Shown here piece after piece: positions 2,825-35,237 of a DNA stretch of 64,000 bases. Source of the stretch: Clostridia bacterium (GTDB taxonomy: Bacteria; Bacillota; Clostridia; TANB77; CAG-508). Position 1 is the first letter of the stretch. The number at the start of each line of letters is the position of its first letter. The stretch is taken from assembly GCA_017409455.1 (NCBI GenBank), contig JAFQSS010000011.1:29595-93594 (forward strand), written 5' to 3'. Under the pieces are notes generated by a model. It searched no databases. It saw nothing but the letters and a program-made list of their open reading frames with translations, and was not told the origin of the DNA. The position numbers were made by a program, and so were the translations under genes.

Positions 2825-3241
2825 TTATGGGTTTTGTGAAATTAAGATTGATTCTACTAGTTTAGTAGTTGTATTATATGTTAATTCTACAGTATACCTA
2901 TAATTTGTAGACACTTTTGCTGGTGATTTTGATAATGTATTGATATCGTCAATTAGAACTGTGTCTCCATTTTTTACTTCAACACAAGTATCTGTACCTT
3001 CTTGTGCATTATTGTGGCTAAATACTGTTTGAAGTAAAGCATTTACGTCTGCACCGCTTCTGCTATCTCCTTCATATTTTCTAAATTTGTCATTAAATGT
3101 TTGAATTTGGTATTGAGTCAAATCTCCTGCACCTTCTGCTTGTTCAGAAGCTGTATTGAATATACCAATTCCTAAAGATATTATTAAAATTGCTACTAAT
3201 ACTGCAGCTGCAATTAATAATGCTTTTGTTGCGTTCTCCAT
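2825..3241 (-). CDS. Pilin-like protein, MENAxKAL family (paralog of 4578..4997); candidate major pilin with its own promoter
   Basis: MENATKALLIAAAVLVAILIISLGIGIF N-terminal hydrophobic helix, 138 aa. TTGACA-17-TAAAAT on the minus strand in the 3242-3393 spacer. Strong SD (ggaggg). Confidence 0.6.
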   Translation of the reverse strand: MENATKALLIAAAVLVAILIISLGIGIFNTASEQAEGAGDLTQYQIQTFNDKFRKYEGDSRSGADVNALLQTVFSHNNAQEGTDTCVEVKNGDTVLIDDINTLSKSPAKVSTNYRYTVELTYNTTTKLVESILISQNP

Positions 3242-3276
3242 AGTTTATCCCTCCTTTTTCCACTTTTGTTTATTAA
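2975..3276. repeat. 302-bp direct repeat, copy 1 (pairs with 4731..5032)
   Basis: Covers the SD/5' leader plus the first ~88 codons of the pilin gene. Roughly 90% identical by eye to copy 2, with no indels. Confidence 0.85.
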
Positions 3277-3393
3277 CATTTTGCCTTAAATAGACATTTA
3301 TTTACATTTATTTTAACAATAATAATAACTAATGTCAATATTTTTTCATAATAAAAAATGATTATTTACTTTGTAGTTTAAATAATCATTTTT

Positions 3394-3921
3394 CTATCTC
3401 ATTCCATTTATTGCAATTGTTCCAGATGCTGTTGCTGTAATTATTTCAATATCAGAACCAGCAATATTATAATAAAAACTTTTTAATGATTGTGATAATG
3501 TTTTACTACTATTCTTAACTGTTACTGATATTGCATCTCCCTGTTTTAAAATAATTTTTCCATCACTATTATTAGTAGTATTTGTCCCTGATAGTCCCAT
3601 TATGTCTTCAATTTGACTTGTAAAAATTGAATAATATGTATTATTGTCTCCTATTTTAGTTGTATTTTTATCTAAAACTTTTATTTCCATGTCTATTTCA
3701 TACGTATTTCCAGAAGAAGTTAATTCATTAACAAATTTTTGATATGAATCATTCGTTATTTTCCCAGATTTTATAACTTCATTTACAAATTCTGATGTGG
3801 TTGTTTGGACTACTAATTGAGCTATATCATCAGATCTGTCTGCTATTAAAATTAATGGTACCATAAACATCATAATAGAAGCAATTATAATACCTATTAT
3901 TGATACTGTAGTATCCTCCAT
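3394..3921 (-). CDS. Pilus-associated protein with N-terminal hydrophobic helix (minor pilin / pseudopilin candidate)
   Basis: MEDTTVSIIGIIIASIMMFMVPLILIADR start, 175 aa, embedded among pilin-like genes; AT-rich 15-bp hairpin downstream at about 3355-3393. Confidence 0.4.
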   Translation of the reverse strand: MEDTTVSIIGIIIASIMMFMVPLILIADRSDDIAQLVVQTTTSEFVNEVIKSGKITNDSYQKFVNELTSSGNTYEIDMEIKVLDKNTTKIGDNNTYYSIFTSQIEDIMGLSGTNTTNNSDGKIILKQGDAISVTVKNSSKTLSQSLKSFYYNIAGSDIEIITATASGTIAINGMR

Positions 3922-3930
3922 GTTACCTCC

Positions 3931-4539
3931 TTATAGGCTTTGCAATACATATGTTATCACTCTTTTTTTGATTTGACTTGCCCCTTCACCTTCATAATAT
4001 TCTCCTAAATGCTCTGTAAATTGTGCATTTTTTAAATATTTATACAATCCATTAGTGTGTATAAGTTTGTTTATATATTTGTTTTTGACATCTTGCGATT
4101 TTTCTTTTAATACTTTTTCTCCACCTAATATTATATCTAAATGTTCTTGTGCTTGCTCTTTACTTGCAAATCCTTCATTTGAAAGTTCTATGCATGCTAC
4201 TTTTATTGGATTACCTTTATTATCTTTTTTTACCTTTCCAGTAGTTTCTGTATCATAATATAAAGGAAGTGGTGTCCCAGCATCATTCTGCATAAAATAA
4301 ATTACAATATTTTCTTCAAATGCTCTATACATTGATGTTACAACGGTTTCTATTCCTACTGTTCTAGTAAGGTCTTCTGATGGATTAACATATGTATATT
4401 CTGTTTCTCTATCCCTCATATTTGCTATTGATTGTATTGCTGAGCTGGCTTGAGAAAAAGAAGATATACTTAAAGTCAACGCCAATACAAACATCATTAC
4501 TGCAAATGCAATTTTTAATGCTTCAACTGCGTTTTCCAT
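3931..4539 (-). CDS. Pilin-like protein, MENAxKAL family (202 aa)
   Basis: MENAVEALKIAFAVMMFVLALTLSISSF N-terminus; same operon. Confidence 0.5.
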   Translation of the reverse strand: MENAVEALKIAFAVMMFVLALTLSISSFSQASSAIQSIANMRDRETEYTYVNPSEDLTRTVGIETVVTSMYRAFEENIVIYFMQNDAGTPLPLYYDTETTGKVKKDNKGNPIKVACIELSNEGFASKEQAQEHLDIILGGEKVLKEKSQDVKNKYINKLIHTNGLYKYLKNAQFTEHLGEYYEGEGASQIKKRVITYVLQSL

Positions 4540-4577
4540 AAGTATATCTCCTTTCTAATTTTTTTGTAATTTAATTG

Positions 4578-4997
4578 TTATTTTGCTACTGTAATTTTTT
4601 TAATTAATTTAGTAGCAGTATCATATTCACAAGTTACTTTATATCTAGCCCCTAAAGATACTTTTGCTGGTGATGCTGTTATAGAATTGCTTTTAGCTAC
4701 ACCTGTATGACCCTCAACAGCACTTACTTCTACTTCAACACAAGTAGATGTATCTTCTTGTGCATTATTGTGGCTAAATACAGTATCAAGTAAAGCGTTT
4801 ACATCTGAACCCGTTCTGCTATCTCCTTCATATTTTTTAAATTTGTCATTAAATGTTTGAATTTCATATTGAGTCAAATCTCCTGCATTCTCAGCTTGTT
4901 CAGATGCTGTATTAAATATACCAATTCCTAAAGATATAATTAAAATTGCTACTAATACTGCAGCTGCAATTAATAGTGCTTTTGTTGCGTTCTCCAT
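4578..4997 (-). CDS. Pilin-like protein, MENAxKAL family (paralog of 2825..3241)
   Basis: N-terminal ~88 aa nearly identical to 2825..3241; the C-terminal part diverges except for the SPAKVS..RY..TKL motif. Confidence 0.6.
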   Translation of the reverse strand: MENATKALLIAAAVLVAILIISLGIGIFNTASEQAENAGDLTQYEIQTFNDKFKKYEGDSRTGSDVNALLDTVFSHNNAQEDTSTCVEVEVSAVEGHTGVAKSNSITASPAKVSLGARYKVTCEYDTATKLIKKITVAK

Positions 4998-5032
4998 AGT
5001 TTATTCCTCCTTTTTCTACTTTTGTTTATTAA
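4731..5032. repeat. 302-bp direct repeat, copy 2 (pairs with 2975..3276)
   Basis: See copy 1. Confidence 0.85.
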
Positions 5033-5061
5033 AACTTGATAAATCTCTTTACCAAACTTTA

Positions 5062-5499
5062 TTAACTTGTTACGATTTGTTCAAATAATAAATATTTTAT
5101 TTTTCCTGTGTTTTTGTGGTATTCTATTTTTGAACATCTAAATTTTATATTTCCATAATATTGTATAAATTGTCCTATTCCTGCATTATAGAAAGTTTCC
5201 ATTTTATATGTTGTATCATTGTCTTGCATATATATTTCTATCTGTATAGAATTTTGTTCATTTGATATAAATACATCATTATTATCTTTTTCCACTTTAT
5301 TTTTAGCATTTTTATCAATTACTTTATTTATAAGTGTTCCTAATTCTATACCATATATTTCATTTTCTGTATATTCTTCAATTTCAGCTTTTTCTTTAAG
5401 TATTGTATTATACTCATTTTTATATGAAGAATACTTTACAAATATTATTATGACAACAATAATAATAATTGCAAATAATATTAATATTGACTTTTTCAT
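5062..5499 (-). CDS. N-terminally membrane-anchored protein of unknown function in the pilus operon
   Basis: MKKSILILFAIIIIVVIIIFVKY anchor, 145 aa. Confidence 0.35.
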   Translation of the reverse strand: MKKSILILFAIIIIVVIIIFVKYSSYKNEYNTILKEKAEIEEYTENEIYGIELGTLINKVIDKNAKNKVEKDNNDVFISNEQNSIQIEIYMQDNDTTYKMETFYNAGIGQFIQYYGNIKFRCSKIEYHKNTGKIKYLLFEQIVTS

Positions 5500-5561
5500 C
5501 TATATATCCTTATTATAACATTTTTTTCCTATCTTTTCAACTTTTTTCTATTTTTTGATTG

Positions 5562-6017
5562 TTATGGTACTGTATATTCGTGAAAATTTACTTCATAAAC
5601 TCTGTTTGTTGTTGTGTTTATTTTTACATCTGCATAACCACATCTATATTGTTTTCCAAGCTCAGAGGACAATAATTCCGCAGATTTTGAATTTATTTTA
5701 TTTTCTAAATTAGTAATTCCTGACATATTAATTGTAACATAATAATCTGTTTTTAAGTTATTTTCATATGCAGTATTAGCTGCTGTTACGATATCTTGTA
5801 TTGTTAACGTAAATTGGGTTGTTTTTGTATAATCATCATAATTAATAAATCTAGTAAATTGCTCATTAAATTGTTGTGTTCCTTTAATAGCTATTTCATC
5901 TTGTGTTGATTCAACATATTTACTTAAAGAGGTATATAAACTTACACCTAAAGATATAATCATGATTCCTATTAATACACCTGCTGCTATTAACAGTGCT
6001 TTAACTGCATTTTCCAT
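5562..6017 (-). CDS. Pilin-like protein, MENAxKAL family (151 aa)
   Basis: MENAVKALLIAAGVLIGIMIISLGVSLY; QQFNEQF motif after the helix. Confidence 0.5.
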   Translation of the reverse strand: MENAVKALLIAAGVLIGIMIISLGVSLYTSLSKYVESTQDEIAIKGTQQFNEQFTRFINYDDYTKTTQFTLTIQDIVTAANTAYENNLKTDYYVTINMSGITNLENKINSKSAELLSSELGKQYRCGYADVKINTTTNRVYEVNFHEYTVP

Positions 6018-6039
6018 GTTTTTTTCCTTTCAACAAATA

Positions 6040-6876
6040 TTAATCCATTACAGGTTTTTCTTTACCGTTTTCAATTTTGGTTTGAAGTTTAAAATTCATT
6101 TCAACAATTCTATTCGTTTCTGTATCATATTTTACTTCAGTACAATCAAATTTTGCTCTTTTAAATTGCATATATTGATAATATTGGATTGTTATATCTT
6201 TTATCACTTGAAGTCTGTCTGCTGAGAACTTATCTGTAGTCTTACCTGTTTCTTCATTTACTTCTATTATATTTTTTCCTAATAAATCCTCTAACATATA
6301 TGCTCTGTAAAGTCTATCATCTGCGTAGTCAAGGTCCTCTTCATCTGTTACAAATATATTGTAAATTTTTGATGCCAATAGTTGCAACTCTTTATCTGTA
6401 ATCCTTCCTAATTTTGCACTTGCTATCTGGCACATCTCGCTTGGAGTATTAGTAATTGCTATTAATTTTTTATCACTTACCCAATTATCTCCTGTTGTAT
6501 TTGTTATAACTGATGACATCAAATATTGATTTCTTTTCCCTTCATACCCTGTTTTAAACCCTTCTAGCACTTCTTCATTTCCTAAAGTTATTGTTACTTT
6601 AATTCTCTCATAATTAGTTTCATCAAAATATGATTCAGTTGCATTATAGTCGATAATTTTGTTCATAAGAGAAATTAAATCACTTCCTCTTATGTTGTTT
6701 CTATGATAATTTTCAAATTTCGCATTAAATTTTGTTGTTTGCTCTATTAATGTTGCTTCATGTTTTTGAGTATAATATGATGAAATATCATTGTACAACA
6801 CTACTAATAACGATACTATCATAATTGCCAAAAATATTCCTGCTGCAATTAACAGCGCTTTAGATGCATTCTCCAT
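6040..6876 (-). CDS. Large pilin-like protein, MENAxKAL family (278 aa; tip/adhesin candidate)
   Basis: MENASKALLIAAGIFLAIMIVSLLVVLY; TKFNAKFENY motif shared with the smaller pilins. Confidence 0.5.
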   Translation of the reverse strand: MENASKALLIAAGIFLAIMIVSLLVVLYNDISSYYTQKHEATLIEQTTKFNAKFENYHRNNIRGSDLISLMNKIIDYNATESYFDETNYERIKVTITLGNEEVLEGFKTGYEGKRNQYLMSSVITNTTGDNWVSDKKLIAITNTPSEMCQIASAKLGRITDKELQLLASKIYNIFVTDEEDLDYADDRLYRAYMLEDLLGKNIIEVNEETGKTTDKFSADRLQVIKDITIQYYQYMQFKRAKFDCTEVKYDTETNRIVEMNFKLQTKIENGKEKPVMD

Positions 6877-6879
6877 ATT

Positions 6880-8946
6880 TTATCCTCCCATTTGAGAAAA
6901 CGCCCCAGTCATATTTGTTAATCCTATTATTACTAAAGGAATAATTAAATATCCTACAAATAAACATATCATTGGTGCAAACCCCACAGCTTTACCTATT
7001 AATCCTTTTCTAGATATTAGTACATTATTTGCATCTTTTCTTTTTTCTTGATGATATTCTCTATCTGAATCTAATTCATCAAATGCTTCTCTAATAGGTA
7101 TTTTTTCTACTGCTGCTTGTAAGCTCTCTACAATTCTTATCAATTCTGGCTGTGTAACAGAATTTTTTAATTCTTCTAATGCTTCCCATGCACCAGCTTC
7201 GTAGTTATTTACACATCTCGATATTGGCTCTTTAAAAATGTTTGAATAACGTTCCAACCATTCTAAAATCATTTCAACATTAACTCTTTCAATTTTCATT
7301 AACATTAATATAATTGTCTGGAATTGCATTACTTCATTTTCCATTTCCATTTGCCTCATCTTTTTTTGAAATATCATCATCCAAACAGGCCCCATATATG
7401 CGATAATTGCAAATGTTATTGCTAGTAATATTTCAAACCACTGCATTGCCTCTGAATTTACTATTTTTAATTTGTTGTAAATTCTTACAGCATCTGTTTC
7501 TATTTTCTCGTCTCCTTCTTCATAATATGGAGACTTTGGTAATTCTCTTTCTATTTCTTCTACAGTTATTTTCAAATCACCTTTTAATTTGTCCAAAAAA
7601 TAGTTGTCTTGTTTTGTTAATGCATCAGCTTTCTTTTGGTTCTTTTCTGATAATTTTCCTAAAACTACTGTTTCTGTTGTTGGTTCAGTATAAACATAAT
7701 TTATAGCTATTTTATGTAAAAATCCAAATAAAATAATTGAAACTATTAATGTTGCTATTGCTAAAAATATTCTATTTACATATATCCATTCCATTTTTGC
7801 TTTTGAAGCAGAATCTTTCATAAGTTTCTGCATTTTTCTATAATCTTTCGTCCCTTTTTTGGGTACAAAAGCATTTATTGCTTGTTTTAAAATTGGCTTT
7901 TCATATACTTTCTCTTGCCATGGGTGGTCATTTGTTGCAATATCTACTTGTACTCCTCCATTGTCTTTTAATTTTCTTGTCAACATATAAGATATTACTG
8001 TTAATAGTACTATTAATATTTGTACTATCATGCCAACTTTTCCTTCATAAAAGCTAGCTGTAAATGCAAAATTTGAAATTGACCATGCTTTTAATGGTTC
8101 CAATAATAATACTGGTGCTATTGATATAAATGTTAAACTTTGAAATACATAATTTAATTTATCTCGTTTTAATATTTCAATTTGCATTTCTTGTGTAATG
8201 TTTGTGACATTCTTTAAATATAGTGAAACTCCATCTTCTTCTCTATCTCCAAATTCTTGAGTCAAATATGATATACCAGCAAATTCTTTTAAATAACTGT
8301 TTGGTGCTATATCATAATATTTTTCAAGTTCTGTCTCTGGGTCATCTGAACTTAATATTTCATAAATTTTTTCACCCTGTTTTGAAATACTTTTTTCATC
8401 ATCTAATGATACTTGATATATTGCTTCTTCCACCATGTTATATTCATGATATGCATGTCTGATTTCTGCAAAAAAATCTATCTGTTCTTTTAATAATTTA
8501 TTGTCAAGTTTATCAACCATTCCAATTACCAGAGTATCTGCTATAAATAGTTCAAATATTAGTAATATTGCCATTAATAAAAAGTTTCCTTTTGTTATCA
8601 CTATTGTTGCACTGGCTATTACAACAAATATTAACAGTGCTTTTAATAATATCTTTGCAGAATCTTTTCTCGTTACATATTCATCATCTATATTGATAAT
8701 TTCAAGTCTTCTTCTTATTTTGTATAAATATCTTTTTACAAAAGGTGTTTTTATAAGCATTATGTATAATTTTTGATAAAATATATCTAATGAAAAAGTA
8801 TTCGCCTTTGTACCTTCTTGTAACTTTTTCATTTGTTTGTACTCAGACTTTCCCATTTTTTTCATTAATATAAAATATGCAATCATTATTCCAGACAATG
8901 ATAACACAGCAATTAATATTACATATTTCATCATATCCATGTTCAT
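6880..8946 (-). CDS. Polytopic inner-membrane platform protein (TadB/TadC-like, possibly a fusion)
   Basis: 688 aa with several TM clusters separated by cytoplasmic helical regions; lies directly downstream of the secretion ATPase. Family assignment is by context only. Confidence 0.45.
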   Translation of the reverse strand: MNMDMMKYVILIAVLSLSGIMIAYFILMKKMGKSEYKQMKKLQEGTKANTFSLDIFYQKLYIMLIKTPFVKRYLYKIRRRLEIINIDDEYVTRKDSAKILLKALLIFVVIASATIVITKGNFLLMAILLIFELFIADTLVIGMVDKLDNKLLKEQIDFFAEIRHAYHEYNMVEEAIYQVSLDDEKSISKQGEKIYEILSSDDPETELEKYYDIAPNSYLKEFAGISYLTQEFGDREEDGVSLYLKNVTNITQEMQIEILKRDKLNYVFQSLTFISIAPVLLLEPLKAWSISNFAFTASFYEGKVGMIVQILIVLLTVISYMLTRKLKDNGGVQVDIATNDHPWQEKVYEKPILKQAINAFVPKKGTKDYRKMQKLMKDSASKAKMEWIYVNRIFLAIATLIVSIILFGFLHKIAINYVYTEPTTETVVLGKLSEKNQKKADALTKQDNYFLDKLKGDLKITVEEIERELPKSPYYEEGDEKIETDAVRIYNKLKIVNSEAMQWFEILLAITFAIIAYMGPVWMMIFQKKMRQMEMENEVMQFQTIILMLMKIERVNVEMILEWLERYSNIFKEPISRCVNNYEAGAWEALEELKNSVTQPELIRIVESLQAAVEKIPIREAFDELDSDREYHQEKRKDANNVLISRKGLIGKAVGFAPMICLFVGYLIIPLVIIGLTNMTGAFSQMGG

Positions 8947-8975
8947 GTTATAGAAACACCTCCTCTTTACTTTAG

Positions 8976-10895
8976 TTATCCTTCAATTTTTGCTCTTTTT
9001 GTTTTTTTCATTTGTTTTCCCCAATGTTTTTCAATAAATTCATCAAATCCTTCAACATCTGACTCATCCATATTTGCTCTCATGTCTTCTAAGTTTTTAT
9101 CTGATATTTTGTTTGTAATTACATATCCTCCATCAACATATTCTAGAATATTCCTATATTCATATAATTTTTGATCTGTAACTTTTGAAAAATATGTTGT
9201 CGCATTTTGGAAGAATTTTTCCATTTTTCCGTCCATTGTTTTTTCACCTTTGTAGTCATGGTCATATGTTAAATCATCTACAATTGGTATACACTCTGTA
9301 ACCCTTTGTATAAATCTTTTTCCTCTAAAGTCTTTTGATAAGTGAATATCAAAATTTAATACTTGTACTACTTGTTCTTCTGCTGTTTTTTCGTTTCTAA
9401 ATACACCTGCTCTTAACATTGAGTTACGCAATGCAGTTACTAAGTCTGGGAATGTTTTAGCATGGTGAGTAAATAGTGTAAATTTTGATGCAACCTGTGC
9501 AGATTGTATCATCCAAGATGCTACAGGGTCAGTAGCAACCTCACCTATGATGTTTACAGAACCATCTGTTTTCTTTTGAACGTCCAAACATTCTTGTCCT
9601 GCTATTGTATCTGTTTCACGCATTGATAAAATATTTCTTGTTGGATAAACTTTTCTTAAGTGTAACTCGAATGCAGTTTCTGTGATACGCAAGTTCATAG
9701 TTTCATATATATTTTCTATCATACCCATTAGAAGTGTTGTTTTACCACAACCTTGTTCACCAGTTATTGATGTAATTCTTGCACCTTTAACTAGATATTT
9801 TAATAAATCAATTGCTTCCTCTTTACCAGGTGTTTCTCCTGTCCATTGTTCAACTGTAGCTCTTTTTACGTCAAATTTTCTTACGAAAAACGCCCATGTT
9901 TCTGACATACTTGGTCTTACTACAACAACACGAGAGCCGTCTTTCATTTCATTTATTTTATAACCATTTGTATCTGATAATTGTCCTGGGTTATTGTATT
10001 TGTAAATATTTTGACATACCCTTTTTAATTCAGATTCTGTACCAAATGATAAAAATGCCAAACGAATTGATTTACCTTGGAAAAATATCCAAATACTATC
10101 ACATGCTCGAGGTACTTTGTGTTCTGCAACTTGGTCTAAATAGTCTCCATCTGTTTGTGCAACTTGGCTTAAGAAACTTTCTGGTAAACCAGATACACCT
10201 CCAGATACACCATCTATGTTCATATCTCTTATTTCATCTATTGAACTATATCCTTTATAATGTTGGTATATTCTTTGCACAACAACCTCTAATTTATCTT
10301 GAAATGTTAATACTATTTGCTCTTTTTCATATATGTCATTAATCTCATCCTCTGTTATTACATAACATGGTTTTGTTTCCCCAAGAATATATTTCAAAGT
10401 TGCTAAATTATATCTTTTTATTAATTGTGTTAATGCTTCATACCCAAATTCTTTTTTATACACATATATCAAAATGTCAAATTTATCTTGTGATGTAAGT
10501 AATGATGGCATGTCAAATGGTATAGCTGCTGATATATTTGTTTCATCAACACCATATTCTTGTGATAATAAATCTGCAATTAATTCTTTTACATATTTTT
10601 TATCGTTAACATCTCCATATGTACAACCCTTTAAAGCTTTTTTCAATGCATATTTTTTGCTTTTTCTACGCTTTAATTCTTCTTCAGATAATCCTATATC
10701 ATATAAGTTTACTTTTGTTATTTCATCTAATCTTTTTTTAATATAGTCTCTCATTGTTTCAAGAGTATATGTTTTTTCGTCTTTTTCAATTTCTTGTTCA
10801 ACTTCTGCATTTTGGTTTTTGTTTAAAAAGTATGTTAAACCTGCTGCTGCAGATATAATAACAATAAGCATTAACAATATATTTGTTATTGACAT
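8976..10895 (-). CDS. CpaF/TadA/VirB11-family secretion ATPase with N-terminal TM anchor and long N-terminal extension
   Basis: Walker A GEQGCGKTT, followed by ..RITETAFELHL.. and IIGEVATDP..TLFTHHAKT blocks that align to the CpaF pattern; N-terminus MSITNILLMLIVIISAAAGLTYFL is hydrophobic. Confidence 0.8.
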   Translation of the reverse strand: MSITNILLMLIVIISAAAGLTYFLNKNQNAEVEQEIEKDEKTYTLETMRDYIKKRLDEITKVNLYDIGLSEEELKRRKSKKYALKKALKGCTYGDVNDKKYVKELIADLLSQEYGVDETNISAAIPFDMPSLLTSQDKFDILIYVYKKEFGYEALTQLIKRYNLATLKYILGETKPCYVITEDEINDIYEKEQIVLTFQDKLEVVVQRIYQHYKGYSSIDEIRDMNIDGVSGGVSGLPESFLSQVAQTDGDYLDQVAEHKVPRACDSIWIFFQGKSIRLAFLSFGTESELKRVCQNIYKYNNPGQLSDTNGYKINEMKDGSRVVVVRPSMSETWAFFVRKFDVKRATVEQWTGETPGKEEAIDLLKYLVKGARITSITGEQGCGKTTLLMGMIENIYETMNLRITETAFELHLRKVYPTRNILSMRETDTIAGQECLDVQKKTDGSVNIIGEVATDPVASWMIQSAQVASKFTLFTHHAKTFPDLVTALRNSMLRAGVFRNEKTAEEQVVQVLNFDIHLSKDFRGKRFIQRVTECIPIVDDLTYDHDYKGEKTMDGKMEKFFQNATTYFSKVTDQKLYEYRNILEYVDGGYVITNKISDKNLEDMRANMDESDVEGFDEFIEKHWGKQMKKTKRAKIEG

Positions 10896-10899
10896 TTTT

Positions 10900-11766
10900 T
10901 CACCTCATTTTCATTTGCATATCTTGTAACTTTTTAACAATGTTGTTTGTTAAATTTAATGTACATTGCATAAAAATATAGTTTTCGTCTGTTTTATCTT
11001 TAACATTTTTTAATTTTAAAAATAAATCTACCACATCAGCCTCATCTGCTGCAGCCATATATAATAAATTAAATGGTAGCAAATCTAATTCTTGCTTTTG
11101 CCCTAAATATCTAGCTATATTTTTTGAATTATATTTATAATTACTCATGTATTTCCCAATAACTGGTATACATCTAGTCTTAGTCAATTCTGCATTAGCT
11201 TTTCTTAATTCATTATATCTATTTATACTTTCCAATCTTTGTGTAAGTACAAATACATTTACTTGTGATAAATTAAGAATTTCTTCTTGTGTTTTTCTGC
11301 TTATTCTTTTGTCTAAATCTACTATTACTATATCGTAATATTGATTCGCTGTTTTTATTAGTTCTATATAACTAGCCTCTATTTTTCTTAATTCTTCAAC
11401 ACTTGTTTCTGTTGTTCGTATTTTAGCTTCTGAAAAACCTGTAATTACTTCTAATCTGCCCTTAAAAACTACTTTTGTGTAATCTGTAATAATAGAAGGT
11501 GTTAATTTATTACTTGTTATAAGTTTGTATAAACCTTCTATTCCATTTTCAACTGCAATATTGTTATTTTTTCCATTGCTAAAAAATGATGTGTTTTTAC
11601 TAGTATCGCCCCAAAAACAATTTTTCATTGTAGAATCACCAAAACTAGTTGATATTAGCAAAATTTTGCTATTACGTTCTATTGCCATTCTTGTTGCGAC
11701 AGCTACTGATGTCAACGTTCTTCCAGATTGTTCTCTACTATCATTCCAAAAAGTTATTATTGACAT
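10900..11766 (-). CDS. ParA/MinD-like protein with degenerate P-loop (TadZ/CpaE-like)
   Basis: ITFWNDSREQSGRTLTSVAVATRMA..LLISTS, then YDIVIVDLD (Walker B-like); position upstream of the ATPase. Confidence 0.5.
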   Translation of the reverse strand: MSIITFWNDSREQSGRTLTSVAVATRMAIERNSKILLISTSFGDSTMKNCFWGDTSKNTSFFSNGKNNNIAVENGIEGLYKLITSNKLTPSIITDYTKVVFKGRLEVITGFSEAKIRTTETSVEELRKIEASYIELIKTANQYYDIVIVDLDKRISRKTQEEILNLSQVNVFVLTQRLESINRYNELRKANAELTKTRCIPVIGKYMSNYKYNSKNIARYLGQKQELDLLPFNLLYMAAADEADVVDLFLKLKNVKDKTDENYIFMQCTLNLTNNIVKKLQDMQMKMR

Positions 11767-11778
11767 TTTCTAACTCCT

Positions 11779-12465
11779 TTAAAGTTCTTTTATTATATTT
11801 TTAATCGTTTTTTCTCCTATTTCCGGACATATGCTATTTGTTAAAAATTGAATATTATCTCTATATTCATTACTTAAATTTCTAAATTTAATTTTTGAAA
11901 TCCTTTGATTTTCCATTATGGCCGAAAAATCTCCATTTTCTAATGGAAAATATATTTTAGATTCATCCCATATCACCTTTGTGCCTAAGGCCAAATATTC
12001 AAAATAGTTTTCTTCTTCTTTTAACATGTCTTTCGAGAAGAATATTCCGGTTATACGCTTAGGAATGCCTAATTGGCTTAATATTTCAATACCTTTTTTC
12101 AAAGAATATGAATCATAAGATGTTACAAAATATATTTTGTCTGAAGATTGTAATCCAAAAGTAGCAAATCCTTCAAAATTATCTGTATCTATTATAAAAA
12201 AATCATAATCCAAATTTTCATTTTCTTGTAATCCAATATATTGTTTTAATTTTTCTATATTTTCGAATCCAACCGCTACATCTATATCTTCGTAAGTAGT
12301 TATATATGACTTTGTTGGGTTTATAACTGGAACTATATATTTGCATTTTTGAGTTATTGTATTATCTAATATTAGAACTTTCTTATTAACCATTGTCAAA
12401 ATTTTTGCTATACTTAATATTATATCAGTTTTATCATAGGCTCCTACAAACCCTATCTTCTTCAT
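11779..12465 (-). CDS. Second ParA/MinD-like protein with degenerate P-loop
   Basis: MKKIGFVGAYDKTDIILSIAKIL..VLILDNT, DYDFFIIDTD Walker B-like. Confidence 0.45.
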   Translation of the reverse strand: MKKIGFVGAYDKTDIILSIAKILTMVNKKVLILDNTITQKCKYIVPVINPTKSYITTYEDIDVAVGFENIEKLKQYIGLQENENLDYDFFIIDTDNFEGFATFGLQSSDKIYFVTSYDSYSLKKGIEILSQLGIPKRITGIFFSKDMLKEEENYFEYLALGTKVIWDESKIYFPLENGDFSAIMENQRISKIKFRNLSNEYRDNIQFLTNSICPEIGEKTIKNIIKEL

Positions 12466-12540
12466 ATGTTCTTTTCCTTTCTTGCAACTAATTGCATTTG
12501 TTTAAATCTACAGTAAGGGCATATATATGCCCTTATCTGC

Positions 12541-13824
12541 TTAATAATTTAATGATTCTAAATATTCTTGTCTTGTTGAAATTGAATTTCCAATTTCTTC
12601 GTCCATTGAACTTTTTATATTATCGAAATAATTTGTTTCATTATTTATTAATCCTTGTAAATAGTTGTTTCTTAAATTTTTAGCTGCTTCTGTATATCTA
12701 GTTGCCAATTCTTGTTTCGCTATTTCAACAACATTTGGATTTGATTGTATTTGTGCAGTTACAGAAGCATTTGGTACATATGTTGGCAATGCAGCTTCTT
12801 GATTTGCTGGATCAACATATTTAGTTACATATAATTTTGAACCTGCTAATCCATAAGCTTCTACTATTGCACTTGACATTGATAATATTTCATCTTCTCT
12901 TAAATTAACTCTTATAGTATCTGTCACGTATGTTCCATCAGCATTTAATGGTATGTCTACTTGTACTTTTGATACTACAATAAAATCTTGTCCTCCTGGT
13001 GACATTAATCTAATATCTATATAATCATTTGTCATCAAATCCATTGGTAAAACTAACATATTATATTGTTGTTGTCTTACATCATCAGTTATAATTTCAT
13101 CTGATTGTACTATAAATTGTGGTGTAATAACTGTATTCATATTCATATTTACTTTTGCAAGTACTGGTACATTTTTTATTTCTATATATTGTTTTACTCT
13201 TGCTTTTGCACCTGTATTTAAAGTTGATGTATCTAACTTGTATATGTAGAATTCTCCTGTACTATTTTCTTGGTATACTCTTGTTATTTGATCATTCCCT
13301 TGTGTATCAACAAAAAACATTCCATTTTCATCTTGTGTAACACCTTCTGTTGTTTTTACTTTTTCTAAAGTTCCATTTACATCTACATAGTAATCTCCTG
13401 TTGCAACTTTATTACCTTTTGAATCTTCAAACTGGTTGCCTGTATTTTCTATAACTTCTATTATTGTATCTCCTTTATCTAAATACAATCCATATTTACC
13501 AGTATTAATAGGCTCTCCTTCTTTTGTTTGTAAAAACCATGAATCAATCACTTCAAATGTTGCAGTGGCATTACTTGGTACTGTATCTCTATTAACTTGT
13601 TGAAGTGAAAACATGTCTTCAGTTAATATTTGCCCTGCTTTTACATCTTGTGTAAGTGTATATACATTTATTTTAGCTGCTTGTTCAGCTACTAATTGAT
13701 CATTTTTTTGTTTTAACATAAGAAATAGAAGTACAATTACTACTCCTGCAACTAATAAAGTTACTGTTACTCCTAATAAAAATGCATTTCTTGTTTTTCT
13801 TTGCATTGGATTTGATGGCATCAT
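12541..13824 (-). CDS. CpaB/RcpC-like pilus assembly protein (TM anchor + SAF-like domain)
   Basis: N-terminal TM; VKAGQILTEDMF SAF-like segment; C-terminal NDYIDIRLM..IRVNLREDEILSMSSAIVEAYGLAGSKLYV matches the CpaB pattern. Confidence 0.6.
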   Translation of the reverse strand: MMPSNPMQRKTRNAFLLGVTVTLLVAGVVIVLLFLMLKQKNDQLVAEQAAKINVYTLTQDVKAGQILTEDMFSLQQVNRDTVPSNATATFEVIDSWFLQTKEGEPINTGKYGLYLDKGDTIIEVIENTGNQFEDSKGNKVATGDYYVDVNGTLEKVKTTEGVTQDENGMFFVDTQGNDQITRVYQENSTGEFYIYKLDTSTLNTGAKARVKQYIEIKNVPVLAKVNMNMNTVITPQFIVQSDEIITDDVRQQQYNMLVLPMDLMTNDYIDIRLMSPGGQDFIVVSKVQVDIPLNADGTYVTDTIRVNLREDEILSMSSAIVEAYGLAGSKLYVTKYVDPANQEAALPTYVPNASVTAQIQSNPNVVEIAKQELATRYTEAAKNLRNNYLQGLINNETNYFDNIKSSMDEEIGNSISTRQEYLESLNY

Positions 13825-13929
13825 TTTTTATTCCTCCTTGTTTTAGCATTTGTATGCTATCTTTCTTTATTTTACCTCTTTTTAGGACTAAAATCAACAA
13901 AGTTTATTCTTTGTAATAAAAACTTAATA

Positions 13930-14896: not shown

Positions 14897-15016
14897 ACTT
14901 TTTTCGATTTTTTTCAAAAAATTTCCTGTTTATTTTCTTTCAAATTGTACATCATATATTTAGAAAAAGCAATAGTTTTTTCTTTAAAATGTTATATATA
15001 ACAGGGGGTGAAAAAC

Positions 15017-15223
15017 ATGGCAAACAACAACAGTAACAAAAAATTAGTTCCAGAAGCTATGAACGCTTTAGATAAATTCAAATATGAAGTTGCTTCAGAA
15101 GTTGGTGTAACTTTAAAAGATGGATATAATGGAGATATATCAGCTAAAGATGCTGGTAAAATCGGTGGAAATATGGTTAGAAAAATGATCCAACAAGTTG
15201 AAAACAACATGATAGGAAGATAG
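15017..15223 (+). CDS. Small acid-soluble spore protein, alpha/beta type
   Basis: MANNNSNKKLVPEAMNALDKFKYEVASEVGV..GGNMVRKMI is a classic SASP signature; SD aggggg is placed correctly upstream of the ATG at 15017. Confidence 0.85.
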   Translation: MANNNSNKKLVPEAMNALDKFKYEVASEVGVTLKDGYNGDISAKDAGKIGGNMVRKMIQQVENNMIGR

Positions 15224-17131: not shown

Positions 17132-18160
17132 TTATTGTTGATATCCTGTTTTTTTCACGATTTGATCACTTATATTTTTAACTGTTTCACTTACCACATA
17201 ATCAGGTTGTCCTAAAACTTCTTTGTGTAACCTTTCAACATTACTTTCTAATGTAACAGGAACACCATACCATCTATCTAATGTTATTTCTCTTATTTCA
17301 TATGGCCAACCTATGCTTTCTGTTATATTAAGGGCTGTAACAATAGGAATTAATTCCGCTACATCTGATGATGTTATATTTGTACTTATTCTTGGTAAAA
17401 TTGTGTCTATTAATTTATTTAATGAGCTCGCATCTAGTGTTTTGACTTTTGCTAACATAGCATTTATTACTGTTCTCATTCTTTCTGCCCTTTTGTAGTC
17501 TCCACCTTCTGTATATCTTATTCTGGAATATGCTACTGCTTGTACACCATCTAACACTTGTTCTCCAGTATTTGTAATAAGATTTGATTTTACTCCTGTT
17601 GTTGAAGATGTGGATTTTATATAATCATTTATGTATTTTAATTCTGAAGAATCTATGTTTATAGTTACTCCACCCATTGTGTTTACCGCTTCTATTACTG
17701 CATCAAAATTTACTGTTACATATTCTGTTATATTTAAATCTAAATTCGTATTTAATGCTTTTAGTGCATTCTCAGGTCCTCCATATGAATATGCATGTGT
17801 TACTTTATCTAATATTTGTTTTCCATTGCTTTCTACTTGCATATATGTGTCTCTATATACTGATACTAGCTTTATTTCATTTGTATCTTGGTTTAGACTG
17901 GCAATTATTATGCAATCACTTCTATTTCCTAAACCATAATCATCTTTTCTGCTGTCTATTCCAAATAATGCTATGTTTCTGTATCCTTTAAGTTCTTTTT
18001 CTACTTCTTCAGTTATTCCTACAGCTGTTTTATCAATTTCTTCTACATTTATTTTTGATAATTTGCTTTTTACATAGCTTGTCCCTATTGCAAGAGTAAT
18101 GCCTATTATTACTATTAATATTAACAATATTATTCCTATTATTTTTAATGTTTTCTTCAT
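17132..18160 (-). CDS. LytR-CpsA-Psr (LCP) family glycopolymer transferase
   Basis: TM anchor; NIALFGIDSR..RSDCIIIASLN..VSVYRDT pattern. Confidence 0.85.
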   Translation of the reverse strand: MKKTLKIIGIILLILIVIIGITLAIGTSYVKSKLSKINVEEIDKTAVGITEEVEKELKGYRNIALFGIDSRKDDYGLGNRSDCIIIASLNQDTNEIKLVSVYRDTYMQVESNGKQILDKVTHAYSYGGPENALKALNTNLDLNITEYVTVNFDAVIEAVNTMGGVTINIDSSELKYINDYIKSTSSTTGVKSNLITNTGEQVLDGVQAVAYSRIRYTEGGDYKRAERMRTVINAMLAKVKTLDASSLNKLIDTILPRISTNITSSDVAELIPIVTALNITESIGWPYEIREITLDRWYGVPVTLESNVERLHKEVLGQPDYVVSETVKNISDQIVKKTGYQQ

Positions 18161-18161
18161 G

Positions 18162-19265
18162 TTATACCTCTTTTCTTACCATTTCCAAAGCAGCTTTTAT
18201 GACCTTATCCATATCATAATATTTATAATTTCCAAGTCTTCCTCCAAATATAACTTTTTCTTCTTTATCTGCCAATTCTTTATATTTAGCATACAAATCG
18301 TTATTTTTTTCATCATTTACTGGATAATATGCTTCATCTCCAATTTGCCACTTTTTGGGGTATTCTTTTGTTATTACTGTTCCTTTGCATTTGTTAAATT
18401 CAAAATGTTTATGTTCAATTATTCTTGTATATTTTTCATCATGACTTGTATAATTTACAACAGCATTCCCTTGATAATTATCTACGTTTTCATAGATTTG
18501 ATTTTCAAATTTTAATGAACGCCATTCTAATTGTCCATATTGATAGTCGTAATATTCATCAATCATCCCCGTATATACAATTTTTTCTGCTAATTTGTTA
18601 TATTTTTCTTTGTTCTTCAAATAGTCTACTCCTAATTCAACAGTTGAACCATTAAGCATGTTTTCAATAATTATATTATATCCACCTATTGGAACTCCTT
18701 GATATATATCATTAAAGTAATTATTGTCATAGGTAAATCTTACTGGCAACCTTTTAATTATAAATGCTGGCAAGTCTTTGCAATCTTTGCCCCATTGTTT
18801 TTCTGTATATTCTTTAACCAATTTCAAATAAATGTCTTTTCCAACAAGCGATATCGCTTGTTCTTCTAAATTTTGTGGTTCTTTTATATTAAATTCTTTT
18901 TTCTGTTGTTCTATTTTTTCTTCCGCTTCTTTAGGTGTTACAATTCCCCATAGCTTAGAAAATGTATTCATATTAAATGGCAAATTATATATTTCTCCTT
19001 TATAATTTGCTATTGGTGAATTTATATAATTATTGAATTCTGCAAATTGATTTACATATTCCCATATTTCTTTGTCACTTGTATGAAATATGTGTGCACC
19101 ATATTTATGCACATTGATATTATTTATTTTTTCACAATAGACATTTCCTCCTATATGATTTCTTCTGTCTATTACTAAACATTTTTTTCCTTTTTTATTT
19201 AATTCATATGCTACTGTTGCGCCAAATAAGCCAGCTCCAACAATTAGATAATCATATTTTCTCAT
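18162..19265 (-). CDS. glf: UDP-galactopyranose mutase
   Basis: YDYLIVGAGLFGA FAD fold; GAHIFHT; RLGNYKYYDMDKVI C-terminus. Confidence 0.9.
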   Translation of the reverse strand: MRKYDYLIVGAGLFGATVAYELNKKGKKCLVIDRRNHIGGNVYCEKINNINVHKYGAHIFHTSDKEIWEYVNQFAEFNNYINSPIANYKGEIYNLPFNMNTFSKLWGIVTPKEAEEKIEQQKKEFNIKEPQNLEEQAISLVGKDIYLKLVKEYTEKQWGKDCKDLPAFIIKRLPVRFTYDNNYFNDIYQGVPIGGYNIIIENMLNGSTVELGVDYLKNKEKYNKLAEKIVYTGMIDEYYDYQYGQLEWRSLKFENQIYENVDNYQGNAVVNYTSHDEKYTRIIEHKHFEFNKCKGTVITKEYPKKWQIGDEAYYPVNDEKNNDLYAKYKELADKEEKVIFGGRLGNYKYYDMDKVIKAALEMVRKEV

Positions 19266-19281
19266 ATTTTCTCCTTTTTCT

Positions 19282-20817
19282 TTATATACAAATTTTATTT
19301 GTATATAATTTACGCTTTATCCTGTCCAATATATATCTAAATTCTCTGGTCCTACAATATTTAATTATCATTATTACGTTAGGTACTAATAAACAAATTA
19401 TCATCTTAACACCCAAATTTAAAATCTTATTTTTAATTAAAATATACGAGCAAATTTTTTGGTTTAGGAATACAATGACAACTAACAATAGAAATTCTAA
19501 TACACATTTTATATAATATTTATATACTTTTTCATTAAAATAATTTTTAAATAAAAGATAAGGTTCATACCATATATTAGTCAATAGTCTAGCCAATGCC
19601 GTTGCTATAAAAATCCCATTTATTCCCCATTTTATACCTAATCCGATAGACAAAACAATATTAATTATTGATGCTATAATCATTAAATATTTAGTAGATT
19701 TAAATAAATTTGTTGTATTTCTAAAGCAATATATCGGATACAATAGTCCTGTTAAATAAAAGTTAAATACTATTATAAATAAAGTCGATTTTTCTAACAA
19801 ATACTGGTTACCTATCCATAATCCTATAAAGTCTTGTGTTAAAGTTATAAAGCATACACTTGAAAATCCATATATCCAATAAAATATCATCTCTAAAATT
19901 CTAAATAAAAAACTTCTTTCTTTATAACTACTTTCAATATTAAAATCTCCTATACTAGATAACATAGATGTAAAAATCAAGGAAGTGAAAGATGATATAG
20001 TTGTAACTAACATAGAATAATTAGAATATATTCCAACTACCACTGTGTCAACAATTATAGAGATCATGATATTATCTGTATTATTAAGTATTACTCCTCC
20101 TACTTGATATGAAAACATTGACTTAATATTGTTCCAAATATTCTTTTTTTCTTCATCTTCTATATCATTTTTTTCTTTAATTAAGTCATACATCTTTTCA
20201 GCCTTTTTAGACATCGCATAATTCATCAATATAGAAAATGTTATTTGAATGATTAAATATAACAAATAGTTCTTAAATATCAGCAAAGTAATTAATTGTA
20301 AAATTAGTTTGCTAATAGTAAATACTACACTAATTTTTTTCAAAACATATTCTTTCTGATCAGCAATTACTATAGATGTTTTATAAATCATAAAATAAGA
20401 AGATACTGTATTTATTAAAAATAATATATAATATAAAGTTATATATGGAATTTCTTCTTGCAAATTTAATATATTCTTCAAAAATGGTATTAACAATATT
20501 CCTAGTAATAATATTATAATTCCTATTCTATTATACAGTTTTTTATAATATGTAATCAATGAACTTAATTTTGCCTTATTTTTTTCTTTCAATGGCTTAT
20601 ACATATTATAAACAATCGCATTTCCTATTCCAAGCTCAGCTAAAGATAAAACAGAAAGAATATTTGTAAACAAACCATTTATCCCCAAATATTCTGCTGA
20701 TAACATTTTTATAAATACTGTCCTTACTATAAAATTAACAATTGTGTTAATAAATTGATATATTACACTGGCACTTATATTAATCATTGAATTTTTCATT
20801 CTTGAATTATTTTTCAT
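19282..20817 (-). CDS. Oligosaccharide flippase (Wzx/MOP family)
   Basis: 511 aa, ~12-14 TM, in the polysaccharide locus. Confidence 0.7.
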   Translation of the reverse strand: MKNNSRMKNSMINISASVIYQFINTIVNFIVRTVFIKMLSAEYLGINGLFTNILSVLSLAELGIGNAIVYNMYKPLKEKNKAKLSSLITYYKKLYNRIGIIILLLGILLIPFLKNILNLQEEIPYITLYYILFLINTVSSYFMIYKTSIVIADQKEYVLKKISVVFTISKLILQLITLLIFKNYLLYLIIQITFSILMNYAMSKKAEKMYDLIKEKNDIEDEEKKNIWNNIKSMFSYQVGGVILNNTDNIMISIIVDTVVVGIYSNYSMLVTTISSFTSLIFTSMLSSIGDFNIESSYKERSFLFRILEMIFYWIYGFSSVCFITLTQDFIGLWIGNQYLLEKSTLFIIVFNFYLTGLLYPIYCFRNTTNLFKSTKYLMIIASIINIVLSIGLGIKWGINGIFIATALARLLTNIWYEPYLLFKNYFNEKVYKYYIKCVLEFLLLVVIVFLNQKICSYILIKNKILNLGVKMIICLLVPNVIMIIKYCRTREFRYILDRIKRKLYTNKICI

Positions 20818-21910: not shown

Positions 21911-21926
21911 TCTTCTCTTCCTTTCA

Positions 21927-23924: not shown

Positions 23925-23943
23925 TTGTTTACTTCCTTATAAA

Positions 23944-26092: not shown

Positions 26093-26100
26093 TCTTCCCC

Positions 26101-27078: not shown

Positions 27079-27086
27079 TTCTTCTC

Positions 27087-34415: not shown

Positions 34416-34766
34416 GGGGATGTAATGGTTTCGACATTACATTTGAAGCATGAATAGCGAGTAGTGGATTCTCGTTAGCCACTATAAAAACGGGAAATTT
34501 AAATATAAACGCTGATAATAGAGAATTAGCATTTGCTGCTTAGTTGCGGCAACGCCTGTTAAAATATCCCCACATATTTTAATTTGGTGTCATTTAGTGG
34601 GAAACAAAGCTGTTTGTTCTACGAAAACAGTGGGTATTTAGTAGATATATTTGATAGTCGTTTGTTTATTAATGATTATTAAATGAATTTTAATAATAAA
34701 CTGCACTCGGAGAAGTTTGTGTGAATTGTGTTATGGACAGGAGTTCGACTCTCCTCATCTCCACCA
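34416..34766 (+). ncRNA. ssrA: tmRNA (SsrA)
   Basis: 5' GGGGATGTAATGGTTTCGAC..; 3' GGAGTTCGACTCTCCTCATCTCCACCA; tag ORF gct gat aat aga gaa tta gca ttt gct gct tag (ADNRELAFAA if translation resumes at GCU); TTGCAA-17-TATAAT upstream. Confidence 0.9.
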
Positions 34767-34810: not shown

Positions 34811-34892
34811 TCATAGTTGTCATTTCAAGGGTTTTCAAACTTTCTAAAAATTTGCATTTCTTTCATATTTTCTCATTTTTTGTTACTTTCTG

Positions 34893-35236: not shown

Positions 35237-35237
35237 A

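Follow-up and report, generated by a model that had tools for sequence, protein, structure and literature searches.

A Tad-like locus of TANB77 Clostridia and its pilin-like proteins, which may be assembled without canonical prepilin processing

Gene content of the locus and the published TANB77 cluster

The window considered here is a stretch of 64,000 nucleotides (nt) from Clostridia bacterium (GTDB TANB77; CAG-508), which corresponds to positions 29,595-93,594 of the forward strand of contig JAFQSS010000011.1 (GenBank GCA_017409455.1) and has a low GC content of about 27%. It carries a locus of 12 co-directional open reading frames (ORFs) on the minus strand (13824..2825), in which the assembly machinery of a Tad (type IVc-like) pilus is followed by seven small pilin-like proteins. 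A first-pass annotation, made from the sequence alone, had described an atypical Tad-like pilus locus of 12 co-directional genes, and all of these ORFs are indeed present on the minus strand. In gene order they encode proteins of 427, 228, 288, 639, 688, 278, 151, 145, 139, 202, 175 and 138 amino acids (aa), with intergenic gaps of 3-152 nt. The features of the locus, in window coordinates, are as follows.

13869..13897, minus strand: weak promoter candidate before the first gene, TTGATT-17-TAAAAT, 9/12 (consensus match only)
12541..13824, minus strand: CpaB/RcpC-like SAF-domain protein, 427 aa, with N-terminal transmembrane (TM) anchor (Pfam SAF, hhalign)
11779..12465, minus strand: ParA/MinD-fold protein 1, 228 aa, degenerate P-loop GAYDKTD; probable diverged paralogue of the 288-aa protein
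10900..11766, minus strand: TadZ/CpaE-like ParA-fold protein 2, 288 aa, degenerate P-loop (SGRT) (hhalign)
8976..10895, minus strand: membrane-anchored CpaF/TadA-like secretion ATPase, 639 aa (PDB phmmer, Foldseek)
6880..8946, minus strand: platform protein, 688 aa, about 8 TM segments, tandem TadB/TadC-like (T2SSF-like) fusion (hhalign)
6040..6876, minus strand: class A pilin-like protein of 278 aa, MENASKAL..., globular domain with a large insertion (alignment, hhalign)
5562..6017, minus strand: class A pilin-like protein, 151 aa, MENAVKAL... (alignment, hhalign)
5540-5512, minus strand: strong promoter candidate of the 145-aa gene, TTGAAA-17-TATAAT, TG directly before the -10 (sigma-70-like)
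5062..5499, minus strand: 145-aa class A paralogue, MKK plus hydrophobic signal or anchor instead of MENA (C-terminal motif, hhalign)
4578..4997, minus strand: class A pilin-like protein, 139 aa, candidate major subunit (homologue alignment, AlphaFold 2 model)
3931..4539, minus strand: class B pilin-like protein, 202 aa, MENAVEALKIA..., candidate minor subunit (acidic position 6, Lys 9)
3394..3921, minus strand: class C protein, 175 aa, MEDTT...FMVP22L...DRSDD, candidate minor subunit (hhalign)
3338-3310, minus strand: strong promoter candidate of the 138-aa gene, TTGACA-17-TAAAAT, TG directly before the -10 (sigma-70-like)
2825..3241, minus strand: second copy of the candidate major subunit, 138 aa (direct repeat, own strong promoter)

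A putative Tad-like pilus cluster of 10-14 genes has been described in 122 of 129 TANB77 species (Kim et al. 2024, Nat Commun 15:10726, PMC11680825). In HRGM_Genome_2725 it consists of genes 927-938, which encode CpaB (927), TadZ (928), CpaE (929), a TadA/CpaF protein of 640 aa with one TM helix (930), a 693-aa protein with eight TM helices whose first half corresponds to TadC and whose second half corresponds to TadB (931), and seven 'pilin-like' proteins with no detectable homology (932-938), among which 938 alone showed a partial structural match to TadE/PilV (PMC11680825). The machinery proteins of that cluster measure 358, 231, 280, 640 and 693 aa (PMC11680825, Table 1) and those of the window 427, 228, 288, 639 and 688 aa; gene order, sizes and assignments match. 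The two are alike also in their host, an uncultured gut member of the Clostridia with a small genome of low GC content, and in having the machinery together with seven pilin-like genes. The locus is the published TANB77-conserved cluster, so the novelty that the first-pass annotation implied is lost. That annotation had also asked whether the architecture and the N-terminal motif were already known as an established pilus class: the architecture is described in that paper, the motif is not, and the cluster is neither an established nor an observed pilus. The word 'prepilin' occurs 0 times in the article, which mentions neither prepilin peptidases nor the N-terminal motif, but it does report that the subunits are single-TM proteins with no or few homologues outside TANB77 and that some of their genes have their own promoters (PMC11680825). 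The present analysis goes beyond that description in three respects: the near-invariant N-terminus of the subunits, the absence of A24 peptidase genes near the loci, and a wider family in other Firmicutes and on plasmids. Nothing else on this family was found in the literature beyond Kim et al. 2024.

The gene order is the same in 80 of 80 species-level loci: HAD, CpaB, ParA, ParA, ATPase, platform, 278, 151, 145, 139 (one or two copies), 202, 175, (938) and SpoIVB. The related genomes come from human and animal guts and include Clostridium sp. CAG:780, Ca. Merdicola (placed in Clostridia incertae sedis by the NCBI taxonomy), Ca. Scatovivens and uncultured Clostridia. Compared with the proteins of the window, the ATPases of the 80 loci are 76-89% identical, the platforms 57-79%, the CpaB proteins 33-60% and the products of most subunit genes 24-53%, a gradient that is typical of pili and would be expected of a conserved motor driving exposed, fast-evolving subunits. 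Protein 938 is present in some loci and missing from others: tblastn with five 938-like queries gave nothing in the window at E<=1, and a TANB77 938-like query found homologues in 64 of the 80 related loci, the closest relatives (L001-L008 and L010) being among those that miss it. Compared with the published cluster, the genome studied here is without 938 and has a second copy of the 935-like subunit instead.

Assembly machinery, pilin-like subunits and plasmid-borne relatives

Pfam and NCBIfam profiles were run on all 12 proteins and complemented with profile-profile alignments (hhalign). The 427-aa protein matches Pfam SAF with 24.3 bits (cutoff 21) and TIGR03177 (CpaB) with 27 bits, which is under the cutoff of the latter model; the profile of its family aligns with canonical CpaB at 94.8% (E 5e-8), in agreement with the CpaB-like nature proposed at first. 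The following two genes encode ParA/MinD-like proteins whose P-loops are degenerate, as had been noticed (GAYDKTD and NDSREQSGRT). All Pfam and NCBIfam matches of the 288-aa protein are under cutoff, and its family aligns with the ATPase domain of canonical TadZ/CpaE at 95.9% (E 5.6e-9). The 228-aa protein, whose gene is kept in all related loci, reaches just 15 bits with Pfam AAA_31 and 15% in hhalign with TadZ/CpaE, compared with 62% (E 7.5e-5) for the 288-aa family, and these alignments are most readily explained if the two proteins are paralogues, of which the 228-aa one has diverged.

The 639-aa protein had been assigned to the CpaF family, with the Walker A motif GEQGCGKTT, which lies at residues 379-387, and CpaF is its closest relative by both sequence and fold. 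Phmmer against the PDB found CpaF (8rkd; E 4.7e-9) over residues 268-547, and the best Foldseek match of its AlphaFold 2 (AF2) model (pLDDT 75) was TadA/CpaF 8rjf_A (E 6e-16, TMt 0.59), followed by archaeal GspE and FlaI and then by VirB11 and PilB/T. Pfam T2SSE gives 18 bits (cutoff 24.9), and the best NCBIfam model is TIGR03819, 'TadA family conjugal transfer-associated ATPase', with 37.6 bits against a cutoff of 373. The protein is laid out as a TM helix (residues 3-29), a helical N-terminal region up to about residue 260 and the ATPase core (268-547), in which G384, K385, E410, E452, H478 and R527 are invariant across relatives at 31-48% identity. The hydrophobic anchor seen at its N-terminus is real and is kept across a distinct family (366 clusters at 50% identity, E<1e-30).

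The platform protein has eight hydrophobic segments. It gave no match in the PDB with either the single sequence or the profile, and no match to Pfam T2SSF at E<=1 in 27 orthologues; neither the platform nor the subunits match any Pfam or NCBIfam model. Its relationship with TadB and TadC is seen at the profile-profile level only: the profile of 27 sequences aligns with 10 canonical TadB/TadC proteins at 93.7% (E 1.9e-7) over residues 1-330 and at 87.3% (E 3.8e-6) over residues 385-678. The canonical set was taken from five Tad loci (Rhizobium, Streptomyces, Thermoanaerobacterium, Alicyclobacillus and C. botulinum plasmids). Since both modules match, the fusion of TadB- and TadC-sized parts suspected at first is borne out. 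Taken together, the five genes encode a divergent, recognisable Tad assembly core with intact ATPase catalytic residues, and the Tad/type IVc-like character of the machinery is supported for its CpaF-like, TadB/TadC-like, CpaB-like and TadZ/CpaE-like components.

This machinery shares with the Tad/Flp pilus of Aggregatibacter, Caulobacter (Cpa) and Pseudomonas the CpaF/TadA ATPase, the TadB/TadC platform, TadZ/CpaE and CpaB/RcpC, as well as the logic of an operon in which the machinery precedes the subunits. On the other hand, the ATPase carries a TM anchor of its own together with about 260 aa of additional N-terminal sequence, and its identity to canonical CpaF is about 26% and limited to residues 266-535; the platform modules are fused; and there is no secretin, whose absence is expected in a monoderm. 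Neither a G↓xxxxEY Flp pilin nor TadV, TadE or TadF is detectable by sequence, and the subunits are proteins of 130-280 aa with a folded head whereas Flp pilins are helices of about 50 aa.

Five of the seven small proteins (6040-6876, 5562-6017, 4578-4997, 3931-4539 and 2825-3241) start with MENA[STV][KE]AL[LK]IA and continue with a hydrophobic run of about 22 residues, which agrees with the earlier description of five MENA starts followed by a hydrophobic helix. Going upstream from each MENA ATG, an in-frame stop is reached before any other possible start codon, and a GGAGG-type ribosome-binding site lies 6-9 nt ahead of the ATG; as a consequence, no longer leader can exist upstream of MENA. 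Among the paralogous ORFs of the 80 species-level relatives, 290 of 319 begin with MEN, and conservation in the 80 species amounts to 100% for M1 and E2, 97% for N3, 93% for A4, 97% for A7 and 94% for L8; the motif exceeds chance by far. The 139-aa protein has 1126 homologues. In 40 of them (53-83% identity) M1, E2, N3, A4, K6, A7, L8, I10 and A11-13 are invariant, as are N50, K52, F53 and Y56 of the FNxKF..Y motif; residues ~88-108 are hypervariable and contain insertions and deletions.

Three classes of subunit are distinguished here: A (278, 151, 139 and 138 aa, plus the 145-aa paralogue), B (202 aa) and C (175 aa). The class A paralogues share a C-terminal hairpin motif, Y.C..Y(D/N)T.T(K/N), which is also present in the 145-aa protein, and they align with the 139-aa family at 99.7% (278 aa), 99.8% (151 aa) and 95.6% (145 aa); the 145-aa protein, which begins with MKK, is judged from this motif and alignment to be a paralogue of the MENA family. 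Class B orthologues have D or E at position 6 replacing K6, and K at position 9, and class B aligns with plasmid class B at 93.3% and with class A at 97.6%. Class A and B proteins are built of a six-residue tail (MENAxK), the hydrophobic helix of about 22 residues and a globular domain. Class C, which is unrelated to A and B, has a comparably short tail and a hydrophobic helix; its orthologues start with M[GSE]D[TS] and carry an invariant Pro22, and the TANB77 proteins align with those of plasmids and distant relatives at 99.9% (E 7e-34). Pro22 occupies the position of the conserved helix-kinking proline of classical type IVa pilins, which may be a coincidence. Directly after the helix that carries Pro22, class C proteins have a conserved R-x-D-D. 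The alignments and hhalign scores support the view that the small proteins form one family of differing sizes without the G↓FTLIE or G↓xxxxEY signatures, and G-x4-EY occurs in no subunit of the locus. Their sequences predict an N-in bitopic topology with an extracellular globular domain.

In the AF2 model of the 139-aa protein (pLDDT 85.6) a helix spanning residues 2-36 is joined by a low-confidence linker to a confident alpha/beta head. The genes of the 138- and 139-aa proteins (71% identity) contain a direct repeat of 300 nt (2972-3271 and 4728-5027, 92% identical), which spans their 5' halves and ribosome-binding sites, while the 3' halves diverge. Recombination between the two copies would remove the 202- and 175-aa genes, and the repeat may have a part in varying the subunits. 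No riboswitch, for c-di-GMP (cyclic di-GMP) or otherwise, was matched by Rfam anywhere in the window.

Outside TANB77, full-length relatives of the ATPase (34-56% identity) with the same neighbours are encoded by metagenomic Clostridia (L082, L083) and by plasmids of cultured Firmicutes. The carriers include Thermobacillus composti KWC4 (pTHECO01), Lysinibacillus sphaericus C3-41 (pBsph), Alkalihalophilus pseudofirmus OF4 (pBpOF4-01) and Butyrivibrio proteoclasticus B316 (pCY360), together with Paenibacillus, Cohnella, Sporosarcina, Clostridium argentinense and plasmids of C. botulinum; pRSJ17_1, pFWSKR40E1, pART37 and pSP10-266k are further plasmids of the group, and Paenibacillus polymyxa M1 is another cultured carrier. 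The plasmid loci resemble that of TANB77 in having the SAF protein, two ParA-like proteins, the anchored ATPase, a fused platform of about 690 aa, subunits of classes A, B and C and a 938-like protein. The subunits of TANB77 align with those outside at 99.4% (class A), 99.9% (class C) and 93% (class B). The differences are that the plasmid loci have one class A gene, compared with four or five in TANB77, and that N-A-x-K-[AG]-L follows MST, MGE or MDD instead of ME. From this distribution, the core subunit set consists of a single class A protein together with classes B, C and 938-like, with class A expanded in TANB77; such a set recalls the organisation of type IV filaments into one major and several minor subunits.

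Several neighbours recur in the plasmid loci. A protein of about 400 aa with S-layer homology (SLH) or cell-wall-binding repeats is regularly found downstream of the subunits (L084-L087 and L095-L097), and in several loci a giant protein of about 880-1,200 aa (annotated as DUF5704 in four of them) and a GGDEF diguanylate cyclase are located downstream; an HD/HDOD protein lies near the locus of L083. This neighbourhood suggests c-di-GMP control and an associated surface adhesin. No literature on DUF5704 was found. Genes for VirD4-like coupling proteins and replication-relaxation proteins stand beside several plasmid copies (L084, 1-72 and 2695-3603; L094, 16258-19062; L096, 1-273), and the Tad-like family may be part of Gram-positive conjugation modules. 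Related to this, pBsph was non-transferable in reported assays (PMC4363355).

Prepilin processing and proposed assembly

The first-pass annotation had seen no A24/TadV-type peptidase in the 64 kb, and this observation stands. No such gene was detected in the window, either by Pfam or by the translation or position of every real polytopic ORF (the 688-aa platform, GtrII, a Wzx-like flippase, a polymerase-like protein, TspO and a Gate/YlbJ-like protein). The motif G.GD[VIALFMY][KR] is absent from all six frames of the window, and no peptidase of the FlaK, PibD or EppA type was found in it. When 87 family loci (1.77 Mb, window included) were searched in six frames with jackhmmer and GxGD scans, no A24 peptidase turned up either, and the Pfam- or RefSeq-annotated flanks of the relatives contain none; the first GxGD pattern used missed a GFGD control. 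The gene downstream of the locus had been taken for an S55 SpoIVB-type peptidase and it is a genuine one (Pfam, 271 bits). As had been suspected, its adjacency is coincidental: it is kept within this lineage only and is absent from all distant and plasmid relatives. A functional link between SpoIVB and the locus was considered and rejected, the adjacency being lineage-specific synteny.

Tad-like loci of Gram-positive bacteria that lack any protein with a prepilin signal peptide motif have been reported earlier (Imam et al. 2011, PMC3244431). In the species concerned (C. kluyveri, C. cellulolyticum, C. bolteae and D. hafniense) these loci were reported to include tadV (PMC3244431), whereas none was found near the locus studied here. 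Apart from that remark by Imam et al., nothing on a peptidase-free variant was found in the literature.

We consider it probable that the locus is a vertically inherited, chromosomal TANB77 cluster that encodes a divergent type IVc-like fibre machine whose subunits are assembled without canonical prepilin processing. In the mechanism proposed, the CpaF-like hexamer, tethered to the membrane, would dock on the platform formed by the TadC-TadB fusion and would be positioned by CpaB and the TadZ-like pair. The ATPase and the platform would then pull class A subunits out of the membrane and assemble a surface fibre from them, with polymerisation proceeding via the N-terminal helices. The 139/138-aa protein, which is duplicated, separately promoted and variable at its surface, would be the major subunit, and classes B and C (and 938 where present) may prime the fibre or form a tip complex, by analogy with minor pilins. 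The unprocessed six-residue tail would stand in for the cleaved mature N-terminus, with E2 and K6, its only charged residues, one helical turn apart. The use of the subunits in unprocessed form, without canonical A24 processing, is the most speculative step; the balance is in its favour and it is far from certain. A broader proposal is that the TANB77 cluster and its relatives form a distinct type IV filament-like class, in which the subunits have no cleavable leader, the peptidase is not needed, and the N-A-x-K-A-L tail, the tethered ATPase and the fused platform would have become adapted to one another for the extraction and polymerisation of subunits that stay unprocessed; this is put forward tentatively, as a possibility that we hold to be somewhat below even.

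To our knowledge, the subunits of every accepted type IV filament are matured by an A24 prepilin peptidase. If the broader proposal were true, the type IV filament superfamily would gain its first branch that works independently of the peptidase, its definition would change, and pilin finders based on motifs would miss the branch. Besides, what the TANB77 locus builds on the cell surface matters for microbiome-based therapy, because the abundance of TANB77 and of its pilin-like genes is reported to track the response to checkpoint-blockade immunotherapy, and because one protein of the cluster (938) activated dendritic cells via TLR4 (PMC11680825). In TANB77 the fibre probably serves adhesion to gut surfaces or colonisation. 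The plasmid-borne relatives may serve cell-cell contact, possibly during conjugation, or aggregation, as their neighbours (coupling proteins, relaxases, cell-wall hydrolases, GGDEF cyclases and giant SLH/DUF5704 proteins) point in this direction.

The pilin identity of the small proteins, which had been assumed at first, is favoured by the gene context, by the N-in bitopic topology with a very short tail, by an N-terminal helix of about 35 residues followed by a head, by a conserved N-terminus combined with a variable surface, and by the duplication of a candidate major subunit with a separate promoter. Several points weigh against the fibre and its unprocessed subunits. The reading of the subunits as pilins is drawn from gene context and topology; homology to Flp or TadE and a neighbour in the PDB are both lacking. 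Flp, TadE and DUF4320 relatives were tried as candidates and rejected, as hhalign against five canonical Tad loci gave no relationship: there is no Flp/Fap match in Pfam, class A scores 1.4% with small genes in the Flp position, TadE scores 0.6% with class C and 0.5% with class A, and DUF4320 scores 6% with class C. Sequence searches of the PDB with the 139-aa protein and the class C profile gave no matches. In the 139-aa model the linker (residues 32-38) is of low confidence and the helix is not packed on the sheet as it is in classical type IV pilins. Foldseek found no structural neighbour of this model in the PDB (best E 1.7, weak NTF2-like noise), a search that may have been handicapped by the freely oriented helix of the full-length model. 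Among the machinery models, Pfam SAF alone passed its curated cutoff, the other family-specific scores being below theirs. The peptidase searches covered the 64-kb window and about 10 kb on either side of each family locus, not whole genomes, and their jackhmmer arm was insensitive, as two seed control peptidases failed to recover each other. The class A N-terminal core found throughout the family, N-A-x-K-[A/G]-L after only 1-3 residues (ME, MD, MST, MGE, MDD), with KG↓L in Butyrivibrio, is compatible with a permissive prepilin peptidase encoded elsewhere. Finally, TANB77 is uncultured, and the published proposal was made from context, topology and Foldseek, with no pilus observed (PMC11680825); the plasmid homologues in cultivable Bacillales and Clostridia therefore offer an experimental route.

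The alternative that survives best is that the subunits are ordinary prepilins and that an unlinked A24 peptidase (a ComC/PilD or TadV homologue) cleaves classes A and B after Ala7 (MENAxKA↓L), in the manner of archaeal or Gram-positive class III signal peptides, which is unlikely in our view; the system would in that case be a type IV filament that is divergent but otherwise normal. Position -2 is K, position -1 is A or G and position +1 is hydrophobic in most class A proteins, distant ones included (MSTNASKA↓L, MGENARKA↓L, MDDNATKG↓L). It is also common for prepilin peptidase genes to lie apart from pilus loci, and the canonical Tad loci fetched for comparison illustrate it: A24 genes are nearby in two of the five (Rhizobium and Streptomyces), and the other three have none within 9 kb. 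However, a basic residue at -2 is a known requirement for class III cleavage, and class B orthologues have D or E there (MENAADA↓LKM); in relatives that start MGNAQSAL, MKESTSTAL, MSEPSSNF or MDSPVVKKI, the -2/-1 positions are taken by S, T, N or K; position +5 is not acidic; and class C (M[GSE]D[TS]) lacks a small residue ahead of the hydrophobic run. Conservation is poor in true leaders, whereas here the would-be leader M-E-N-A is the best-conserved part of the subunit (100/100/97/93%). No A24 gene was found in about 90 loci with flanks of about 10 kb, in a profile search that was, as said, insensitive.

The same residues bear on the resemblance to archaeal class III signal peptides that had been pointed out earlier, and which turns out to be weak: some members agree with K(-2)A(-1)L(+1), but class B has D or E at -2. 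A consistent class III signal peptide was not found, as there is no E at +5 and the -2/-1 residues vary across classes and relatives. Archaeal class III pilins (Epd, Aap and the archaellins, processed by EppA/PibD/FlaK) are similar in their short N-terminal segment, often with K and then A or G before the helix, in the absence of an acidic residue at +5, in a folded head unpacked from the helix, and in that archaeal GspE and FlaI are the next-best PDB matches of the ATPase fold after CpaF. They differ in that the -2/-1 positions here are not consistently basic and small and conservation is highest in the putative leader; neither an archaeal-type peptidase nor a match in sequence or fold was found.

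It is improbable that the core drives some different process in the envelope, such as protein export, the assembly of cell wall or spore envelope, or a short pseudopilus piston like that of type II secretion, with the MENA proteins staying anchored in the membrane. Such a non-fibre role would agree with the flexible linker between TM helix and head, which replaces the pilin lollipop in the model, with the lack of a pilin-like structural neighbour, with the position of the locus between sporulation-related genes (SASP, for small acid-soluble spore protein, and SpoIVB) in nearly all TANB77 species, and with the large SLH- or CWB (cell-wall-binding)-anchored and DUF5704 proteins that follow in the plasmid loci, as possible cargo. 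Nevertheless, the subunits show a major-plus-minor set, gene duplication and a conserved N-terminus with a variable surface as in pilins, the SpoIVB linkage is absent outside the lineage, and we know of the combination of CpaF-type ATPase, TadB/C platform, TadZ and CpaB only from filament assembly. Just as improbable is a remnant conjugation or mating-pair apparatus fixed in the TANB77 chromosome for contact in DNA transfer or uptake instead of host adhesion: full-length relatives (34-56% ATPase identity) do lie on large plasmids beside VirD4-like coupling, replication-relaxation and cell-wall hydrolase genes, and TIGR03819, a conjugal-transfer model, is the best NCBIfam match, far below its cutoff, but in 80 species the TANB77 locus occurs as one copy, in conserved order between housekeeping genes, it has no relaxase, coupling protein or integrase nearby, pBsph itself did not transfer (PMC4363355), and the idea concerns the role of the machine, not its nature, and is compatible with the mechanism proposed above.

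What remains new after the published cluster is taken into account, namely a Tad-like system with no canonical prepilin signal or peptidase and a wider family in cultivable hosts, is a testable hypothesis and not a demonstrated class.

Surroundings of the locus

A cluster of genes for cell-surface polysaccharide lies upstream of the pilus locus (17132-28715). It contains a LytR-CpsA-Psr protein, confirmed by Pfam LytR_cpsA_psr, and genes recognised by eye for a protein like UDP-galactopyranose mutase, a Wzx-like flippase, several family 2 glycosyltransferases (GT2), a polymerase-like membrane protein and an initiating sugar transferase.

ORFs of sporulation type are located at 1640-2710, 15008-15223, 33704-34258, 49995-51266 and 52597-53740; SpoIVB was confirmed by Pfam, and SASP-, SpoVT-, YlbJ- and YtfJ-like ORFs were recognised by eye. 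This uncultured gut lineage of small genome looks like a spore former.

The transfer-messenger RNA (tmRNA) gene is found at 34416-34766 on the plus strand, with the tag ADNRELAFAA, and is followed by about 3 kb without any ORF longer than 108 aa. In the region after it (34800-42200) the GC content rises to 0.30-0.34, compared with about 0.27 elsewhere, which gives this segment the appearance of an island that integrated at the tmRNA gene and has since decayed.

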